A stretch of 59,749 nucleotides of DNA. Source: a virus. The stretch is taken from the UHGV virus genome UHGV-0185078; one strand, given 5' to 3'. The translations under genes and the position numbers were made by a program. Under the pieces are notes generated by a model. That model worked only from the letters and a program-made list of their open reading frames with translations. It was not told the origin of the DNA and did no database searches. This document shows, in pieces, positions 6,562 through 51,543 of the stretch. The stretch's first letter is position 1, and each line of letters opens with the position of its first letter.

Positions 6562-6970
6562 GTTGCCAGGCTGGCAGACACGTTTATTAACCACAGTAAA
6601 GGAGTTGTCATCGACTCCTTTTTCTTGGGGTGAAAATGATTGCTGCACCTTCGCGGCAAAATGTGTTGATGCGCAATACGGAACAAATATCTACGAACAA
6701 GTCGCTGGAAAATATAGTACAGAGCTTGGAAGTAAAAAGTTCACTATTGAAAGAGTTGGAACCGCTTACCTTCCATTGTTATTGGATACATATCTGAGCG
6801 AACGCGTTAACAAGAACTATGCGCAAAGAGGCGATGTGGTTACATTTGAGGGAGCATTGGGCTTAACTGCTGGCATATTATGGACTGGATATGTATGGGC
6901 TATGGGTCCGAACGGTGTGGAAACATTCCCGCTTAATAAGATCAAAATTACGGATATTTGGAGGGTCTAA
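6536..6970 (+). CDS. tail assembly protein (lambda K-like position), possible NlpC/P60-type Cys motif
   Basis: Start chosen at ATG 6536 preceded by GGGGGAG RBS (track ORF from 6386 would overlap upstream gene by 175 nt); contains ENDCCTF motif; stop overlaps next ATG (TAATG). Confidence 0.4.
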   Translation: MRQGSPMSKLPGWQTRLLTTVKELSSTPFSWGENDCCTFAAKCVDAQYGTNIYEQVAGKYSTELGSKKFTIERVGTAYLPLLLDTYLSERVNKNYAQRGDVVTFEGALGLTAGILWTGYVWAMGPNGVETFPLNKIKITDIWRV

Positions 6971-9900
6971 TGCCACCAGCAATAATTGGAGCAGCGATAG
7001 CTTTAGGTGCGTCGGCTGCTGCTGCGGCTAGTATTATTTCGGCTACTACCGCTCTCGTTATCGGTATTGCTGCAACTGCGGCAGGTGCTCTTTTAACTAA
7101 GACACCAAATATGAACTTTGATGCTTACAAGGGGCAGCAAGAGCGTAAACAGGTTCTGCGTGCGGCTACAGCGTCACGCTCTGTTGTATATGGCACGACC
7201 GTAGCGTCCGGACTATTAGCATTTGCGGAGGAAGAAGCTGGAGAACAAGATGAAGGTGAATGGATGCATCTTGTTGTTGTTCTTGCTAGTCATAAATTGG
7301 AAGGTATTGAAACAATTTGGTTGGGTGATGACGGAATTGATTGGTTTGGTGAAAACGCTACTTGGGAGTTTCATAACGACCGTCAGACTGTTGACCCATT
7401 CATGTTAAGACATTGTCCTTCCTGGAAGGAGGATATGATTGGCAAGGGTATTGCATGGCTACGTTTAAGCTTAAAGTTTGATGCTGAAAAATTCCCATCA
7501 GGTTTGCCAAACGTCAAGGTGTTGAAAAAGGGACGTAGAGTCTATGACCCACGTTCCGGTCAAACTGTCTTTAGCGATAATGCTGCTCTTGTTATTCTTG
7601 ATTATTTCCGCACGTATTTAAAGCGCAAGGACGAGAATATCAACTGGGACCAATTCAAGGAAGCTGCTAACATCTGCGATGAGTTTGTTACTAACGCAGA
7701 TAACACTACGGAAAGACGTTACCGCATTAACGGTGAGTTTGAAGTGGATGAAGCACCTGCCAAAATCCTTGATGCTATGCTTGAAGCTTGCGGCGGGGAG
7801 CTTACCTATATTGGTGGTAAACACGGTCTGTTAGTTGGTGCTTATTACGGTCCAGCTACCATGACTCTGGATGAAAGCTGCATTGCTGGGGACATTAAGA
7901 TTATCCCTGAGACATCTTATAAAGAACGCACCAATACCATTACAGGTACATTTGTTGACCCGAAGCAAACATACGCTGAAGCAGATTTTCCTCCAGTTGT
8001 GGTTAAGGAATGGGTGGAAAAAGATGGCGGCGAAATAACGCAAGACATGGATTTCCGCTTCGTTACAAGTGAATATCAAGCGCAACGGCTCGCTAATATT
8101 ATTTTACGTCGTAAGCGTGTTGGTCGAACAATTGAAGTGCCATGTAACATGAAGGGGTATAAATTCCGCCCGGGCATGTATGTTAACGTAACAATTTCAA
8201 ATATTGGAATGAAAAATGTTGAGATGCGCGTTACTAAATGGTCATTCGATCCTAAAGGTGGGATTAATCTTGTCCTTCGTCAAGACTTCCTGGAAATGTG
8301 GGACGACGCTATTGGTAAACCAATGGAGCGCCCGGATCTGGTAGACCTCCCGTCTGGTGCTATTGCTCAACCGCAAAACCTTCAGTATCAGGCATTGCAG
8401 ATTAGCGATGTTGTGCAGGGTGTTTTAACGTGGAGCAATATTGGACAGGTAGCGTATAACCGCGTAGCCGTGCGACAGGGAGGTACAACGGTTTGGACCG
8501 CACAAGTCCCTGGCCAAAACGTTCGCGTTACTGGGTTGCTGCGGGGCGCGTATACAGCACATGTTCAAGCGGTAGCCTATAGTGGGGCGGTATCACCGGA
8601 AGCGTATCTGGAATTTAATATTCAAGCTCCACCTCCTCCAACGTCTATTGAAGTGCAACAAGGTTACTTTGCAATAAGTCTAATCCCTAAATCCGCGGAT
8701 ATTGCAAACGTTAGCACGCAATATGATTTCTGGACGTCCGGTGAAACAAGATTGTCTTCCGTGTCTACAGATATTGTGGAACGCGAAGCGACTCGTAAAG
8801 GTATGGGTACAACATGGACTTCAGAAGGTTTGAAGAATGGCCACACTTACTACTGGTATGTTCGCACTATTAACGCTTTTGGATCGTCTGCATTTGTAGA
8901 GGTTGCTGCATTGTGTTTCACAACAGCTACAGACTTAATGCCACAGATTGATTCTGAGTTCAAGAAGACGGAGACTTATAAAGAGCTTACTGCTGAAATT
9001 ACAGGTGTTAAAGACGGTGTTACACAACTCAGTCAAACTGTAGTAGACACAGAAAAGCGTTTAAGTCAAAGTGTTAGCAACGTTCAGCAAAGCGTTATTA
9101 CTTTGGACGGCGTTGTTCAAGATCAGGGTGTTACCATCAACGAACAGGGGCAACTCATTGATGCACAGGGTCGATTAATTGATACGCAAGGTAAAACTAT
9201 TCAGCAAGTCAGCGCCACTGTACAGGAAACAAGTAAAGCAGTCGTAGATCTGGAAGGTAATGTTAACGCGCAATGGGGTGCTAAGGTACAGGTTGACAGT
9301 AAAGGGCAAAAATACGTTGCTGGTATCCAGTTGGGTATGGAAGGTTCAGGCGGTGCTGTACAATCTTACTTCATGGTGAGCGCTAACAACTTTGCTATCT
9401 ATAACCCGACAAACAGCGTAGCAGAATTGGCATTTGCTGTTAAGAACGGTCAAGTGTTCATGAAGGCTGCATTTATTGAAAATGGTACAATTGACAGCGC
9501 TAAAATTTCAAACCAGATTCAGTCAACAAACTACGCTAGCAATAGCGCGGGTTGGATGATCAACAAGAACGGTAGCGCTCAGTTTAACAACGTGACGGTA
9601 CGGGGTACGGTATACGCTAACAACGGATCTTTCACAGGAACAGTGAACGCAACAAGCGGTAAATTCAAGGGTACTGTGGAAGCTACCAGTTTTGTGGGTG
9701 ATGTCGCGAATATGTGTGTCATTGCTGAGTCTGCAATACCAAACACACAAACTACAAGTTCAAGAACCTGGACAAAAACTTTCAAAGACTCATCTGGTTC
9801 AACATTATCTAAAGACTTTGTGTTGTTATTAAGTTATAGTTTAACCGCATATACATCAAATCAGGCAAGTCGTATAATTGTGACTGCTAACATAGGTGGA

Positions 9901-10092
9901 ACATCAATAACAAGGAGGATTGAGCGAGCTGCCAATGGGCCTGCTATGGATGTAACCATACCTTTAGCAGTGAAAGGAAAGACAGCGTCGAGGGTAACAA
10001 TAAGCGTTAAGGAGGAATATACGAATGTCTATGGGAGTTACTTGCGTCCGTCTGTAATATTAATGACTCGCGGAACTGGTAGTTGGTCGTAA
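6970..10092 (+). CDS. tail tip / host specificity protein (lambda I+J-like)
   Basis: 1040 aa from ATG 6970 (GGAGGG RBS 4 nt upstream); hydrophobic Ala/Gly-rich N-terminus, large central body; position after M/L/K-like genes. Confidence 0.75.
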   Translation: MPPAIIGAAIALGASAAAAASIISATTALVIGIAATAAGALLTKTPNMNFDAYKGQQERKQVLRAATASRSVVYGTTVASGLLAFAEEEAGEQDEGEWMHLVVVLASHKLEGIETIWLGDDGIDWFGENATWEFHNDRQTVDPFMLRHCPSWKEDMIGKGIAWLRLSLKFDAEKFPSGLPNVKVLKKGRRVYDPRSGQTVFSDNAALVILDYFRTYLKRKDENINWDQFKEAANICDEFVTNADNTTERRYRINGEFEVDEAPAKILDAMLEACGGELTYIGGKHGLLVGAYYGPATMTLDESCIAGDIKIIPETSYKERTNTITGTFVDPKQTYAEADFPPVVVKEWVEKDGGEITQDMDFRFVTSEYQAQRLANIILRRKRVGRTIEVPCNMKGYKFRPGMYVNVTISNIGMKNVEMRVTKWSFDPKGGINLVLRQDFLEMWDDAIGKPMERPDLVDLPSGAIAQPQNLQYQALQISDVVQGVLTWSNIGQVAYNRVAVRQGGTTVWTAQVPGQNVRVTGLLRGAYTAHVQAVAYSGAVSPEAYLEFNIQAPPPPTSIEVQQGYFAISLIPKSADIANVSTQYDFWTSGETRLSSVSTDIVEREATRKGMGTTWTSEGLKNGHTYYWYVRTINAFGSSAFVEVAALCFTTATDLMPQIDSEFKKTETYKELTAEITGVKDGVTQLSQTVVDTEKRLSQSVSNVQQSVITLDGVVQDQGVTINEQGQLIDAQGRLIDTQGKTIQQVSATVQETSKAVVDLEGNVNAQWGAKVQVDSKGQKYVAGIQLGMEGSGGAVQSYFMVSANNFAIYNPTNSVAELAFAVKNGQVFMKAAFIENGTIDSAKISNQIQSTNYASNSAGWMINKNGSAQFNNVTVRGTVYANNGSFTGTVNATSGKFKGTVEATSFVGDVANMCVIAESAIPNTQTTSSRTWTKTFKDSSGSTLSKDFVLLLSYSLTAYTSNQASRIIVTANIGGTSITRRIERAANGPAMDVTIPLAVKGKTASRVTISVKEEYTNVYGSYLRPSVILMTRGTGSWS

Positions 10093-10098
10093 TAAATA

Positions 10099-10127
10099 AT
10101 TAACCCCTCGTTTGAGGGGTTAATTTT
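10099..10127. terminator. bidirectional rho-independent terminator between J-like gene and lipoprotein gene
   Basis: Perfect inverted repeat attaacccctc-gttt-gaggggttaat flanked by A/T runs on both sides. Confidence 0.7.
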
Positions 10128-10360
10128 CAATAATCAATTACACAGTTTGAAGGTGAACCAATTCGTCGGTATTCATGATCAATCTCATGGCACCATTGTC
10201 CAGTCATTGGAAGCTTTTCGGTATCATAAATTAAAGAACCGTTACCATCACGATCTAACGGTTTTGGAATTACGCCGGAATTAGGTTTACCAGTATTTAA
10301 ACCGTTACCACATGCAGTGAGGGATAAAGTTAATGCCAGCATAATTAAAGCGCGTTTCAT
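10127..10360 (-). CDS. small lipoprotein, candidate superinfection-exclusion protein (Cor/Llp-like)
   Basis: 77 aa, MKRALIMLALTLSLTAC signal peptide with lipobox L-T-A-C; GGAG RBS; antisense to flanking tail genes and bracketed by terminator and intergenic promoter region. Confidence 0.6.
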   Translation of the reverse strand: MKRALIMLALTLSLTACGNGLNTGKPNSGVIPKPLDRDGNGSLIYDTEKLPMTGQWCHEIDHEYRRIGSPSNCVIDY

Positions 10361-10442
10361 TGGGACTCCTTTGTGTTGTTGTCAAGGTTCAATTCTAATA
10401 TACTTGTTGTGTTGAGTAAGTCAAATAAATGTGGGAGATATT

Positions 10443-13400
10443 ATGGCAACTCGTTTACGTGGTACTTTAGTTGATGGTTTAAATAAACCAATTGTCAACG
10501 CTACAGTTGCGCTTTTAGCGAAAGGGAATAGCTTATTGGTATTGTCCGGTAGTGAAGCTATCTTTAAAACAAGCGCAACCGGAACATATGATATTACAGT
10601 CCAAACAGGCTATTACAAGGTTATTATCGGTCCGCAAGGTAGCGAGCCTTATAAAGCTGGTGAAATTGCTATTTACGCGGACAGTAAAGAAGGTACGCTG
10701 AATAACTATTTAACTTCCTGGGCACCGGAAGAGTTAACTCCGGAAGTTATTGCACAGGTTAAAGATTTAGTTTCACAAGCTGAGACAGCTAAGAATGCTT
10801 CTGCTGCATCTGCAACTAAATCCGAGCAAGAACGCGTTAAAGCAGAAGCTGCGGCACAGAATGCTGTAAACACCGCTAACGGTATGAAGGCATCTATTGG
10901 TCTGACTACCGCGCCTAGACATGTTGCAGATATTACAGTCAATCCGTCATCATTCTTGGGTTTTATACGGATTTTACGGTCTAGTACAGTAGGTTATCCG
11001 GATATCGCGTCCTCAGAAAACGCATTGGCCGGTTTTGTCTCCGCTATGGATGGAACCCCTGGATTTATAGGTGTTTTTGTTGGAGACATGACCGGGACTA
11101 TATATAGCTATAGATGGATTAAGGACGTTGGTGTTACATGGTGGAAGCAAGTTAACTATTCTACTGTCAACAGATATACCCAGCTAAACGCAGAAACTAA
11201 TTTTACAAACCAATTAGGCAATGCAAAACTCCTCATAGATAATAATAAAGTTTGGGGAGCATATGATAATGAAAATAAACGCTTCATACCTCTAGCAATA
11301 GCTCAAGGTGGTACAGGAGGAACTACTGACGCGGATGCTCGTACAAACTTAAGACTTGGTTCTAACGATACACCTCAATTCAGAAACCTTAATCTTGTTA
11401 CAGTAGCAGACTCCGCACAAGCGCCTTCCGGCATTGTGAGCGGTTATTTAAATAATAGCTCTGGAGTTCAAAGATGCCGCTACCGCATATATTCTGAAAT
11501 AAGAGGTGACAATAAAGCGTGGTTAACCTTACACCTTCAATCAGACACAGCAACAAATAAATATGCTGGTCTAAGCGTTGATGGTAATTTTCAAATCAAT
11601 GGAAATTTTATTGGTAATGCTTTGCAGTTGTCAGACGCTCCAAATTCCAGGATTAATCTACAGTTAGATCGTTTTTATCAAAGTGCTAACGAAACGGTTA
11701 TTTATACTCCGTCTCGTCAAGCATATATGACAATTTCTAATAACAAGACTTGGGGTGCTTATGACGCGGAAGCTCAAAACTTCATCCCTTTACCTATTAA
11801 TAGGGGAGGGACTGGTGCTTTAACAATATCCGACGCTAAGACTAATCTTCAAATTCCGTCTGTAGGTGGGGGTGATTGGTTAACTTATAACGCTCCTCCT
11901 GGCGTGGAAGCTGGAAAGTATTATCCAGTTATCATCGATATGGCATACAGCTCTTTATATGCTTCTGGTGCTTTTATAGATATAAAGACACGTTCTGCCG
12001 CTGGTGACGATCCAATGAACTGTTGCACTTTTAACGGATTTATTAGATGTGGTGGTTGGAGCGACCGAAAAGACGGCGGTTATGGTTACTTTAACAACTA
12101 TGCAAGAAATGAAATTGCTATGAAATGTATTCTTTCTTCATCTAAAGATGCGGAAAGATACGTTGCAATATATGTTGAAGGTCGTGGTTTCCCTCTTCAA
12201 TTGCGTGTCCCTGCATTCTGTGAAGTAACAGTACCAACATCAAACTTTACTTATAAAAATACAACCTATGCGTGGGGTACAGCTAACCCTGCAACGGATT
12301 CTGTAGCTATAAACACCTTATTTGATTTTTCATTAAACCGCGTTGGTTTTTACCAGGCCACGACAGAAGGTAATTATTATATCGGAAATGGGGAACGTAT
12401 TGTTTTATCTAACGGAATGTCTGTGGGTGAAGAGTTAAGTCTAACCACACCTAAAGTGTCTTTCAGTGGAACCATTGCGGCTGGTAACGGTGTCATTGCA
12501 GATGGAACATCTGTATCCAACGCTACTTTTTATAGCCGTTATCGTGTTGGTGACGTAATATATGGCAGCGAGTTTCGCGCAAGTGAAAATGCTGGTCAAA
12601 TTATAGTCCGCGATCCAACGGGTGGGACTGCGCATCAATTCTTTAACTTCAATCTCAACGGGACATTCAGCGCCCCCGCTGGTTTGCTATCTTCTACTGG
12701 AGTAGATTGGAACGGTCAGATTAATACCGTCAATAAATTCTATGGGATTGCTGGACAAGTTAACACACCAGAAAACAATGTGGTTTATGGTGGTATACAT
12801 GTTGGATTCAGCGGCAACTATGCTTTCCAGATATGCGGAAGGAAAGGTAAATCCTTCTTCCGCACATTTGAAGCAGGAGTAGAAGGACAATGGCAACAAT
12901 TAGTAACTAAAGGGAACTACGGAGTTGGTCTAATTGGAACTTTTAAACCGGAAGATGGTTCAAGTGGTTTTTACACTGATTCCGATGGGGCAAATACTTG
13001 GTCGCCCGCTAACGGAGGGGGTTTTCAATCTTCGTATACTCAGCAGCGAATATTCCAATTTTGGATGACATCAAGCTCGCAGGGGTTTATTCGTTTTAAC
13101 AATAGCGGTAACGCGCAAGCGTCTAAGACAGATAGACCTTGGACAACGCTTCAAGCTGCTGGTACATCTGATATTAACTTCAAACGTGTTCACGGTGAAA
13201 TGGACACAGATGTTGCGTTAGATAATATTAGCAAGCTTGAATTTGTTTATTTCAACTACTTGTCCGACGGTCCGGAGCGTGAAATCCGTAGGGGTATTAT
13301 TGCTCAACAGGCCCAGGAAGTTGATCCTGAATATGTACATAGTGCTGAAACATCCGGAAAAATGACTTTGGATTCTAACCCATTGTTATTGGATGCATTA

Positions 13401-13529
13401 GCTGCAATACAATCCCTCAAGAAAAAGGATCAAGATAATAAAGACCGCATTAGCAAGCTTGAAACTGAAGTTGAGGAACTCAAAAAGCTAGTTGCTACGC
13501 TTGTTAATAAAGATCAACCATTACCATAA
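10443..13529 (+). CDS. tail fiber protein with C-terminal intramolecular chaperone (peptidase S74-like) domain
   Basis: ATG 10443 after GGGAGA RBS; repeated GGTG..A.TNL fiber motifs; C-terminus SDINFKRV...GIIAQQAQEVDPEYV...LLLDALAAIQSLKK matches the endosialidase-chaperone pattern. Confidence 0.8.
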   Translation: MATRLRGTLVDGLNKPIVNATVALLAKGNSLLVLSGSEAIFKTSATGTYDITVQTGYYKVIIGPQGSEPYKAGEIAIYADSKEGTLNNYLTSWAPEELTPEVIAQVKDLVSQAETAKNASAASATKSEQERVKAEAAAQNAVNTANGMKASIGLTTAPRHVADITVNPSSFLGFIRILRSSTVGYPDIASSENALAGFVSAMDGTPGFIGVFVGDMTGTIYSYRWIKDVGVTWWKQVNYSTVNRYTQLNAETNFTNQLGNAKLLIDNNKVWGAYDNENKRFIPLAIAQGGTGGTTDADARTNLRLGSNDTPQFRNLNLVTVADSAQAPSGIVSGYLNNSSGVQRCRYRIYSEIRGDNKAWLTLHLQSDTATNKYAGLSVDGNFQINGNFIGNALQLSDAPNSRINLQLDRFYQSANETVIYTPSRQAYMTISNNKTWGAYDAEAQNFIPLPINRGGTGALTISDAKTNLQIPSVGGGDWLTYNAPPGVEAGKYYPVIIDMAYSSLYASGAFIDIKTRSAAGDDPMNCCTFNGFIRCGGWSDRKDGGYGYFNNYARNEIAMKCILSSSKDAERYVAIYVEGRGFPLQLRVPAFCEVTVPTSNFTYKNTTYAWGTANPATDSVAINTLFDFSLNRVGFYQATTEGNYYIGNGERIVLSNGMSVGEELSLTTPKVSFSGTIAAGNGVIADGTSVSNATFYSRYRVGDVIYGSEFRASENAGQIIVRDPTGGTAHQFFNFNLNGTFSAPAGLLSSTGVDWNGQINTVNKFYGIAGQVNTPENNVVYGGIHVGFSGNYAFQICGRKGKSFFRTFEAGVEGQWQQLVTKGNYGVGLIGTFKPEDGSSGFYTDSDGANTWSPANGGGFQSSYTQQRIFQFWMTSSSQGFIRFNNSGNAQASKTDRPWTTLQAAGTSDINFKRVHGEMDTDVALDNISKLEFVYFNYLSDGPEREIRRGIIAQQAQEVDPEYVHSAETSGKMTLDSNPLLLDALAAIQSLKKKDQDNKDRISKLETEVEELKKLVATLVNKDQPLP

Positions 13530-19488: not shown

Positions 19489-20441
19489 TAGACACGTTCT
19501 CCAATTAATACACCGCGAAGATTTTCCCCAAAGAATGCGCAAGGTTGCGGATACAAACTAAAGTCCGCAGTCTTAACCACATTTTCGAGCAATAGCAGGA
19601 TGTCAATATTGTACACTCCCGTTATTGTACGGTCCTGTAATACAAAGCTTGCACCTTCCGCATCATCATAGTGAGTACGGGCTAGACCGTTTTCAATATA
19701 TACACGCGGTCGGTCTTCTGCGAACGGTTTAATTTTATGCAAGCCTTCAAAAAGACCTGGATCAACAGGATGTGCATTGCATTGAACATTTAAAATACGA
19801 CGTATATCGGGCCACTCTGCATCAATAAGCTGTGTGCGCAACCAGCGACCTTCCGGATAATGAAACGTCACATTATTCTTGCTAACCTGAATATGTGTCG
19901 GGTTAGCCTTAATGCGCAGTATTTCTTTAATTGCAACGGAAGGTATTATGCAATCGATAGGGAACTGATTACCAAACCAGTATTCCGCAATAGTGACGTT
20001 ATTTGTAGCAAACAGGCTACCGTTATTAATCAGGATACCGCAAGCCCACGGACGGGAAGCATCGGAGCCTACAAACGGAGCAACGGACTTTACACCATGC
20101 ACGAAGCGAGCACCGTCTATTTCGTACAAATCACCTTCAGGGAATACGTGCGGCGTTTCTTTATCGATGCAGCGTATAGCAACACGAAACGGACCGGACT
20201 TGATATTAAGTTTACCGTTAGCCATCATTGTTAGCTGCACCGTTTCATCGCAGTTTGAAATAGCTTTAATCATAGGTCCAGCTTCGGGCTTGCAATCAAT
20301 ATCCAGCTCAATAGGGCTACCCAGTGCAATAACACCGTTAAAGCCCTGTACTTGTCCATCACGAATAAGAAAACTGGTAAGCCCTTCTACCAGTTCCTTT
20401 TTAGCGACGGAGCCTTGAACAAATTTAAGAGCGTCTAACAT
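19488..20441 (-). CDS. DNA polymerase sliding clamp (DnaN/beta-clamp-like)
   Basis: 317 aa; RWLRTQLIDAEWPDIRRIL resembles DnaN KLVDGRFPDYRRVLP; translationally coupled to the polymerase gene. Confidence 0.55.
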   Translation of the reverse strand: MLDALKFVQGSVAKKELVEGLTSFLIRDGQVQGFNGVIALGSPIELDIDCKPEAGPMIKAISNCDETVQLTMMANGKLNIKSGPFRVAIRCIDKETPHVFPEGDLYEIDGARFVHGVKSVAPFVGSDASRPWACGILINNGSLFATNNVTIAEYWFGNQFPIDCIIPSVAIKEILRIKANPTHIQVSKNNVTFHYPEGRWLRTQLIDAEWPDIRRILNVQCNAHPVDPGLFEGLHKIKPFAEDRPRVYIENGLARTHYDDAEGASFVLQDRTITGVYNIDILLLLENVVKTADFSLYPQPCAFFGENLRGVLIGERV

Positions 20442-50104: not shown

Positions 50105-50542
50105 ATGGCACTTCAACCTCGTGGTATTCGTAATAACAATCCAGGTAATATTCGCTGGGGTGACAATTGGCAGGGCTTAGTTCCTGCTGATAAGCGAACC
50201 GATAAATCTTTTGCTCAATTCACGCAACCGATTTACGGCATTCGTGCACTAGCGAAAATCCTGACAAACTACACCAAACGTGAAGGCTTACCCAATGTGG
50301 GTAAGAAAAACATCGACACTGTACGTGAAATCATCACTCGCTGGGCACCGCCTAACGAAAACGATACGGAAGCGTATATTCGCTCTGTTGCCAAAGCAAT
50401 TGGTGTTCAACCTAACGATCCAATTAATGTCTTTGACAAGGCAATTATGTCAGGATTGGTGAAAGCAATCATTCGTCATGAAAATGGCATGATGCCCTAT
50501 ACCGACGACGTAATTAACCGCGCTATTGCAATGGTAATTTAA
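50105..50542 (+). CDS. putative endolysin (peptidoglycan hydrolase)
   Basis: ATG 50105 with GGAGG RBS; 145 aa soluble protein immediately upstream of holin and spanin genes; fold class not assigned. Confidence 0.5.
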   Translation: MALQPRGIRNNNPGNIRWGDNWQGLVPADKRTDKSFAQFTQPIYGIRALAKILTNYTKREGLPNVGKKNIDTVREIITRWAPPNENDTEAYIRSVAKAIGVQPNDPINVFDKAIMSGLVKAIIRHENGMMPYTDDVINRAIAMVI

Positions 50543-50547
50543 CTGAC

Positions 50548-50569
50548 GGGGCGTTAGCCCCTTTTATTT
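50548..50569 (+). terminator. candidate attenuator/terminator between endolysin and holin
   Basis: ggggc-gtta-gcccc hairpin followed by ttttattt. Confidence 0.4.
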
Positions 50570-50578
50570 GGAGGGAAC

Positions 50579-50923
50579 ATGTTCAATTCACCCAACGAAC
50601 ATTGGGCAGTTCTAGCGGGGTTTGCGTTTATCTCCCTTATTGGGGGAGCTCTCGGTTATGTTATGCGTACAATAGACGCTGGTAAGAAAGTACGGGCAAG
50701 CATTGCATTTCTTGAAGGCTTATCCGCCGCTTTCTTTGGCGTTATAATGTATGCGATCTACAGGGAGTTTAACATCAGCCTTTGGTTCGCTTTTGGCCTT
50801 GCTGGCCTATTTGCTTGGGCAGGTTCACGTGCTACGCTAAAAGCCCTAACGTCGCTTATAGCTTCACGGACAGGGATCAAACTCGATTCAGGGGACTGCA
50901 AACATGAAAACGATTCTAAATAA
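50579..50923 (+). CDS. holin (three transmembrane helices)
   Basis: 114 aa, three hydrophobic helices, charged C-terminus; GGAGGG RBS. Confidence 0.6.
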   Translation: MFNSPNEHWAVLAGFAFISLIGGALGYVMRTIDAGKKVRASIAFLEGLSAAFFGVIMYAIYREFNISLWFAFGLAGLFAWAGSRATLKALTSLIASRTGIKLDSGDCKHENDSK

Positions 50924-51380
50924 CTTCTTCGGTTTTATAAAAACTAAACCGCGTCTGTTTATCGAGTATTTGATGATCGGCGCGGTTGTGTTTTTATGCG
51001 GGGTGGCTGCTTACTTGTGGTCACAGAACGAGCTCAGCAAAACTAATTTAAATCATGCTGAGCAAAGACTAACCGTTGTAGAACGGGACAATGCAAAGCT
51101 GGGCGAAGCTGTTGTATTTCTTGCATCCCAACGGGAGAAGGATACTGAATCCTATCGAAAATTGGCTTCAGCAATTGAAAGTGAGCAACATAACCACAGG
51201 TTGCTTCAGGACAAATTAAAAGCACTGGAGAAAAGCAATGCCGACGTCAAAGCTTATCTTAATGAGCGTGTTCCTGATGATTTGCGCAGGCTGCTCGACG
51301 GAGATACAACCTCCACCACCGCCACAGATAGTGAAGATAAAACTTCCGGCTCATCTGTTGGTAGAATGTCGGGAAGTTGA
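50904..51380 (+). CDS. i-spanin (Rz-like)
   Basis: N-terminal transmembrane helix, coiled-coil periplasmic domain; contains the o-spanin gene in another frame. Confidence 0.55.
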   Translation: MKTILNNFFGFIKTKPRLFIEYLMIGAVVFLCGVAAYLWSQNELSKTNLNHAEQRLTVVERDNAKLGEAVVFLASQREKDTESYRKLASAIESEQHNHRLLQDKLKALEKSNADVKAYLNERVPDDLRRLLDGDTTSTTATDSEDKTSGSSVGRMSGS

Positions 51381-51543
51381 TAAATATCCTTTGGTTTATA
51401 CAAGGGACATTATCCAACGTTTGCAGGATACAGAAACAGCTCTGACTGAATGTAAACTGAGGGTTAAGGAAATCATACGCTATGAAGCTGAAAATGTTTC
51501 GCTTGATTTTGTAGGATCAAGCAATTATATTCAGCCTAAATAG
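51238..51543 (+). CDS. o-spanin (Rz1-like lipoprotein)
   Basis: LMICAGCS lipobox then PPPPP tract; starts inside the i-spanin gene and extends past it. Confidence 0.55.
   Translation: MPTSKLILMSVFLMICAGCSTEIQPPPPPQIVKIKLPAHLLVECREVDKYPLVYTRDIIQRLQDTETALTECKLRVKEIIRYEAENVSLDFVGSSNYIQPK

Follow-up and report, generated by a model that had tools for sequence, protein, structure and literature searches.

An antisense lipoprotein gene between J and the tail fibre of a Seuratvirus: a homologue of Lpp010 and a likely LamB-directed exclusion factor

The window, by which we mean the whole stretch of viral DNA analyzed here (59,749 nucleotides; UHGV virus genome UHGV-0185078), is recognizable as an almost complete Seuratvirus genome (Queuovirinae). 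Behind its J-like tail gene, and on the opposite strand, lies a small lipoprotein gene, which is followed in turn by the gene for a lateral tail fibre. The part of the window from 9000 to 11500 shares 96.5% identity with Escherichia phage KS_A8 and 95% with OddieOddie, with further matches to Seurat, CAjan, slur01 and the BASEL phages WildeMaa, SeppeHuegi and GottfriedDienst; proteins 100% identical to the window lipoprotein occur in WildeMaa, KS_A8, Skure and others. The features of the locus are as follows:

6970..10092, plus strand: J-like central tail fibre or tail-tip gene (Pfam Phage_Tail_Tip and Ig_J_second)
9622..10089, plus strand: C-terminal extension of J, ORF residues 889-1044 (156 residues); homology to the VogelGryff J ends at residue 888
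9715-10089, plus strand: putative LamB-binding domain, the last ~125 amino acids of J, by homology; aligns to the C-terminus of the mEp010 J
10098..10125, no strand assigned: hairpin terminator with a perfect 12-bp stem and a 4-nt loop, common to the convergent J and lipoprotein genes and placed between their stop codons
10127..10360, minus strand: lipoprotein gene with an ATG start, a 77-aa precursor and a 61-aa mature protein; stop codon at 10127-10129 (ORF list and sequence)
10310..10360, minus strand: signal peptide (amino acids 1-16) and the codon of Cys17 (10310-10312); lipobox LTAC, Gly at +2
10366..10371, minus strand: Shine-Dalgarno sequence AAGGAG, 5 nt 5' of the ATG (sequence)
10397..10424, minus strand: putative sigma-70-like promoter, TTGACT-16 nt-TATATT (consensus scan, 10/12 matches)
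10443..13529, plus strand: lateral tail-fibre gene, ATG at 10443 (Pfam phage_tail_N and Peptidase_S74), with a C-terminal intramolecular chaperone domain

The probable start of J is the ATG at 6970, which stands behind GGAGGG; the ORF list gives a TTG at 6958. Distal GpJ domains of the type found at its end have been assigned to LamB (preprint 10.64898/2026.04.02.716166). The counterpart of the tail-fibre gene is labelled as lateral tail fibre in the BASEL relatives. The antisense slot after J is kept in Seuratvirus, Nonagvirus, Dhillonvirus, a phage of the Drexlerviridae, the mEpimmI phages and an E. coli prophage.

A sequence-only reading of this DNA had described a 77-aa lipoprotein with an LTAC lipobox and Gly at +2, encoded antisense in the space that separates the J-like and tail-fibre genes. 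The ORF and the sequence confirm both the protein and its placement, with the gene at 10127-10360 on the minus strand, the end of J at 10092 and the start of the fibre gene at 10443. The precursor reads MKRALIMLALTLSLTAC followed by GNGLNTGKPNSGVIPKPLDRDGNGSLIYDTEKLPMTGQWCHEIDHEYRRIGSPSNCVIDY, the break falling between LTAC and the residues GNG. The N-terminus is basic and is succeeded by a hydrophobic core, and the lipobox L14-T15-A16-C17 satisfies the pattern [LVI][ASTVI][GAS]C. By the Lol rule, an E. coli lipoprotein without Asp at +2 is sorted to the outer membrane; the Gly at this position predicts that the protein would reside there, in the inner (periplasmic) leaflet.

Several lines of evidence establish that this antisense ORF is a real gene, beyond chance. 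A scan of the entire window for ORFs with a lipobox returned just two, the lipoprotein gene and one at 20167-20418 on the plus strand, against 0.03 per window in a control of 30 shuffled windows. The second of these, which begins MQRIATRNGPDLILSLPLAIIVSC..., is probably a chance ORF. When the window gene is compared with other Queuovirinae copies, the dN/dS of the mature part is 0.00-0.05 at a dS of 0.3-1.2, which speaks of strong purifying selection, while the signal peptide evolves faster, with a dN/dS of 0.27-0.64. A tblastn search with the lipoprotein recovered 44 phage records, in every one of which it is full length. Across 26 homologues the signal peptide is variable and the +2 residue is G, A, S or T; invariant are Cys17, PNSGV (26-30), G41, L43, T47-E48, GQWC (54-57), R66, G68 and N72-C73. 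Since both cysteines of the mature part (Cys57 and Cys73) belong to this invariant set, a periplasmic disulfide between them appears likely.

The gene also has candidate expression signals. The promoter-like site, with its 10/12 consensus matches, sits within the 82-bp divergent gap separating the lipoprotein and tail-fibre genes. AAGGAG is the same in Seurat, CAjan, KurtStettler and 9g, and the Seurat record annotates a ribosome-binding site; Seurat, CAjan and KurtStettler keep both promoter hexamers unchanged, and 9g departs in the first one. On the other side of the gene, the hairpin has a folding energy of -18.2 kcal/mol (z = -5.2), none of 200 shuffles folding equally well. It recurs at the equivalent position in 8 related loci, including those of Seurat, CAjan, KurtStettler, 9g, EP23, mEp010 and AS5, and 4 of its 8 inner base pairs show changes on both sides. 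The earlier description of a perfect bidirectional terminator holds for the perfect 12-bp stem and only in part for the bidirectionality: the terminator scan made its call on the minus strand alone, where the tail ATTTATTACG is T-rich, and the plus-strand tail, TTCAATAATC, is poor in T. The latter agrees with late transcription having to continue into the tail-fibre gene, and the promoter scan found no plus-strand promoter-like site between the hairpin and that gene. The hairpin would thus mainly terminate the lipoprotein transcript; it looks efficient on the minus strand and is probably leaky on the plus strand. Its 4-nt loop is inverted between otherwise identical hairpins (window 10110-10113 versus L001:4110-4113); on the lipoprotein strand, Seurat has GTTT where the window and CAjan have AAAC.

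By profile comparison, the window lipoprotein falls into a small separate family, PHROG 12984, apart from Cor and Llp (phrog_12984 'lipoprotein', E = 2.4e-55, residues 1-77 of 77). Searches of Pfam, NCBIfam, PADLOC and PDB sequences produced only weak, below-threshold matches to the signal peptide, such as LptM_cons. The family is narrow, for only 4 of the 1.84 billion representative proteins searched matched its profile. One of these four, P0031, a protein of 4467 aa matched in nine stretches, was discarded as a repeat or low-complexity match. AlphaFold2 runs on the full precursor and on the mature part, with 26-28 homologues, reached a pLDDT of only 63.8 and 57.4, which makes the models unreliable, and a Foldseek search of the PDB with them returned only noise, with a best E-value of 5 and none at E <= 0.001.

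The link that carries most functional information comes from the lowest-scoring tblastn matches (53.9-55.3% identity), which include the temperate phages mEp010, mEp013, mEp044 and mEp554. The mEp010 protein gp116 (Lpp010) shares 55% identity with the window lipoprotein overall by BLASTP (E = 4e-32) and 64% in the mature part; its gene, mEp010_116, runs antisense, flanked by the genes annotated 'host specificity protein J' and 'tail fiber protein', and its predicted 3' terminator overlaps the end of J. Negrete-Mendez et al. 2025 cloned gp116, their 'type-C lipoprotein' Lpp010, and expressed it from a plasmid (PMC11893012). Its expression excluded the LamB-dependent phages mEp010, mEp044 and mEp554 and also lambda, and mEp013 escaped this exclusion yet needs lamB; all four carriers of type-C lipoproteins, mEp010, mEp013, mEp044 and mEp554, require lamB (PMC11893012). 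That study scored plating and plaques, not adsorption or LamB binding (PMC11893012).

A second line of evidence is the receptor usage of close relatives. Table S5 of the BASEL study lists LamB as the terminal receptor for Bas21 GottfriedDienst, Bas22 KurtStettler, Bas23 WildeMaa and Bas24 SeppeHuegi, and LptD for Bas25 VogelGryff and Bas20 (PMC8594841). The four LamB users have lipoproteins 97, 87, 100 and 99% identical to that of the window, respectively, and the LptD users Bas25, Bas20 and Bas19 (VogelGryff, FritzHoffmann and ChristophMerian) are not among the 44 lipoprotein-bearing tblastn records. From these relatives we infer that the receptor of the window phage is probably LamB. The J protein of VogelGryff shares 73% identity with that of the window as far as residue 888, where it ends, and a different antisense gene, of 321 aa, occupies the slot of the lipoprotein. 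As VogelGryff has neither the J extension nor the lipoprotein, the two form one exchangeable host-recognition cassette. In the same vein, when the final 125 residues of the J of the window served as a tblastn query, 32 records came up, all of which are among the 44 lipoprotein carriers. A second subtype of the J domain, seen in KurtStettler, Dru_SM1, 9g, the mEp phages and CSP1/CSP1C, is likewise always accompanied by the lipoprotein, as is a distant version in AS5.

The two elements can nonetheless be inherited separately, as is seen in HK97. Its J C-terminal domain is 92.6% identical to that of KurtStettler, and the gap between J and stf (L012:4033-4239, 207 bp) contains no lipoprotein gene. 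Tails can therefore be assembled and work without the lipoprotein; a role in assembly or as a chaperone is rejected on the strength of this case and because an exported lipoprotein cannot act in the cytoplasm. Further, the mature lipoprotein of the window is 97-98% identical to those of KurtStettler and the E. coli Nissle 1917 prophage, as against 28-31% for the J receptor-binding domains. The lipoprotein does not, then, co-evolve with the receptor-binding domain of J. Its conservation beside divergent J domains, the HK97 case and the cross-exclusion of lambda together suggest that its target is the host receptor rather than a phage protein.

Some further carriers show variation in J. Salmonella phage STP-SP5, a Seuratvirus, has a lipoprotein 78% identical to that of the window (L013, last 900 bases); its J runs across the record ends and has a C-terminus unlike the other subtypes and with a weak similarity to the lambda J receptor-binding domain (26% identity over 119 aa, pairwise E = 1e-4). 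In KS_S4 and SHIN8 the window-type J domain occurs as a variant that is 75% identical (PP627282.1 17898-18383 and PP627280.1 17899-18384) and bears an insertion, being 486 nt rather than 375 nt long; their lipoproteins are still 96-97% identical to that of the window.

Taking the homology to Lpp010 together with the perfect association with LamB-dependent relatives, the functional class proposed by the sequence-only reading, a receptor-inactivating antisense lipoprotein moron, is the most likely one. We consider it likely that the protein is a receptor-masking lipoprotein directed at LamB, working like Llp and Cor while standing outside both families. Under this proposal, host RNA polymerase would transcribe the gene from its own promoter; the precursor would be exported, lipid-modified at Cys17 and relieved of its signal peptide; Gly at +2 would send it to the periplasmic leaflet of the outer membrane; and Cys57 and Cys73 would probably form a disulfide. 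The mature 61-residue protein would then act on LamB such that J-type receptor-binding domains become unable to start infection. The gain for a virulent phage would be twofold: competitors would be excluded and progeny would be spared wasteful attachment to the debris of lysed cells, as for T5 Llp. The logic would be that of Llp on FhuA and of Rtp45 on LptD. We infer direct binding to LamB, and likewise the timing of expression and the step that is blocked, be it adsorption or a later one. The escape of mEp013 from Lpp010 suggests that LamB is altered, not removed.

The alternative that survives best, though we regard it as improbable, is that the lipoprotein excludes phages and leaves LamB binding intact, so that virions adsorb and are lost because a later step, such as channel opening or passage of DNA through the periplasm, is blocked. 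LamB is a porin without a plug domain, as is established structurally, and offers nothing to relay a periplasmic signal to the surface loops; besides, the mEp010 study scored only plaques. The main case for such a late block is E. coli Nissle 1917. This strain carries a copy (WP_021567253.1; L016:5890-6123, plus strand, equivalent to NZ_CP148105.1 2214452-2214685) that is 95% identical to the window lipoprotein and lies antisense after a J gene with a C-terminus of the HK97/9g type, in a prophage of ~43 kb between yecE and yecD (L017:2950-46431). Nissle is resistant to lambda, which nevertheless attaches to the LamB of this strain and is inactivated; that work invoked an unidentified prophage factor that would keep the DNA from entering (PMC5987069). 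As Nissle LamB still binds lambda, the block would lie after adsorption, if the prophage copy is expressed. Nissle, however, has other barriers, including a repressor gene in another prophage. The published primer sequences for this 'pr' repressor are absent from the 49-kb stretch around the lipoprotein prophage, which appears to be distinct from the 'pr' repressor prophage. Moreover, a virulent phage whose progeny still bound debris would forgo the benefit proposed for Llp and Cor, and the escape of mEp013 despite its use of LamB points to specificity for the receptor-binding domain, which an altered binding surface fits better.

In a broader and still tentative view, for which we would claim rather less than even standing, the family would stand apart, in structure and mechanism, as its own class of exclusion lipoproteins that disable a trimeric, plugless porin, either by reaching into or reshaping LamB from the periplasm or by allowing adsorption while blocking genome entry; it may also be the factor behind the lambda resistance of E. 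coli Nissle 1917. Beyond Nissle, a chromosomal homologue is present in ~50 of 5426 complete E. coli genomes, always as one copy, and only 10 of those ~50 match most of the mEp010 allele.

Receptor masking at LamB has also to be set against readings that dispense with the receptor altogether. That the gene is a moron for host fitness, for instance an envelope or virulence factor like lom or bor of lambda, is very unlikely. Lambda does hold lom in the equivalent slot between J and the side tail fibre, and a gene with its own promoter and terminator that turns up in prophages of ~50/5426 complete E. coli genomes would suit such a role; but the carriers are mainly virulent phages, which gain nothing from long-term fitness of the host, the gene tracks LamB use among relatives, and its homologue gives receptor-specific exclusion. 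A part in lysis, as the outer-membrane spanin subunit or another component, is hardly credible: the protein is a small outer-membrane lipoprotein with a weak PHROG match to an Rz-like spanin (E = 0.006, residues 1-32 only), but its gene lies 40 kb from the lysis cassette (about 50105-51543) and is swapped out in the LptD-using VogelGryff, which would be unexpected of a lysis gene, and the cassette has its own candidate pair:

50904-51380, plus strand: probable inner-membrane spanin, a homologue of CPT_Seurat88 ('hypothetical protein') with an N-terminal membrane segment and a coiled coil
51238-51543, plus strand: probable outer-membrane spanin, an overlapping lipobox ORF, MPTSKLILMSVFLMICAGC followed by STEIQPPPPPQ..., with a proline-rich mature start

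The Seurat record annotates neither of these candidates as a spanin.

The feature as such is already known: relatives have it annotated, GenBank contains identical proteins, and exclusion by a homologue has been published. The GenBank record of Seurat has both 'lipoprotein' and 'bidirectional terminator between end of gene and end of apparent moron', and the BASEL papers describe exclusion factors at the locus downstream of J. It is, therefore, an ordinary and largely described case that adds little as a discovery. Its practical interest is that genomes of small siphoviruses can be screened for the lipoprotein as a simple marker of LamB use, and that phage cocktails should not combine phages which cross-exclude one another through it. 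Since the mature protein is very highly conserved even where the receptor-binding domains diverge, it is also a good candidate for a structure of the complex with LamB.

The label 'Cor/Llp-type' given by the sequence-only reading does not stand as a family assignment, because the likeness ends at the signal peptide and the cysteine pattern differs. BLASTP against T5 Llp gave no alignment at E <= 100; against T1 Cor it aligned residues 1-19, the signal peptide, and nothing in the mature domain; and hhalign of the family profile matched only 20 signal-peptide columns with Llp and 21 with Cor. FhuA, the receptor which the analogy implied, is not borne out either, as the close relatives use LamB. 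The suggested likeness in placement to T1-, phi80- and T5-like phages holds for T1, where cor lies antisense 3' of the J locus, and loosely for T5, where llp is divergent from the receptor-binding gene oad.

A parallel in general design is T5 Llp, which has a 77-aa precursor, a residue other than Asp at +2, two cysteines in the mature part and its own promoter, and is encoded by a virulent siphovirus beside the receptor-binding gene, in opposite orientation, with a proposed role in disabling the phage's own receptor. The two differ in their cysteines: the Llp disulfide Cys11-Cys58 ties both ends of the protein together, whereas the window cysteines, C57 and C73, are 16 residues apart near the C-terminus. 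As LamB has no plug, the mechanism by which Llp acts on FhuA would not be simply transferable. Llp binds the periplasmic face of FhuA, where it jams the plug of this TonB-dependent transporter and prevents attachment of the receptor-binding protein (PMC9586334). Cor of T1, phi80, N15 and HK022, which blocks FhuA, is likewise a small outer-membrane lipoprotein encoded antisense, just 3' of the J and receptor-binding locus and behind a terminator. In T1, however, two receptor-binding genes stand between J and cor, whereas the J of the window itself bears the receptor-binding domain, and its target is FhuA, whereas that of the window lipoprotein would be LamB. Rtp45 of phage Rtp causes conformational changes in LptD that block attachment of the receptor-binding protein (PMC12685063). 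It resembles the window gene by description, rather than by sequence comparison, in belonging, as an accessory gene, to the 'receptor-binding locus downstream of gpJ' of small siphoviruses and in acting on the receptor, which in its case is LptD and not LamB.

With Lpp010 the resemblance extends to homology over the full length, including both cysteines of the mature protein and the invariant PNSGV, TE, GQWC and N-C motifs. mEp010 and the window also share the antisense gene position behind J and ahead of the tail fibre, together with a terminator hairpin; the C-terminal domains of their J proteins belong to one superfamily; and both have LamB-dependent relatives. Against this, the N-terminal linkers of the mature proteins are unlike, and the J receptor-binding domains are of different subtypes, with 26% identity. 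The carrier mEp010 is temperate, whereas the window phage is a virulent Seuratvirus; the likely benefit of the lipoprotein would here be lytic conversion and protection of progeny, not immunity of a lysogen.
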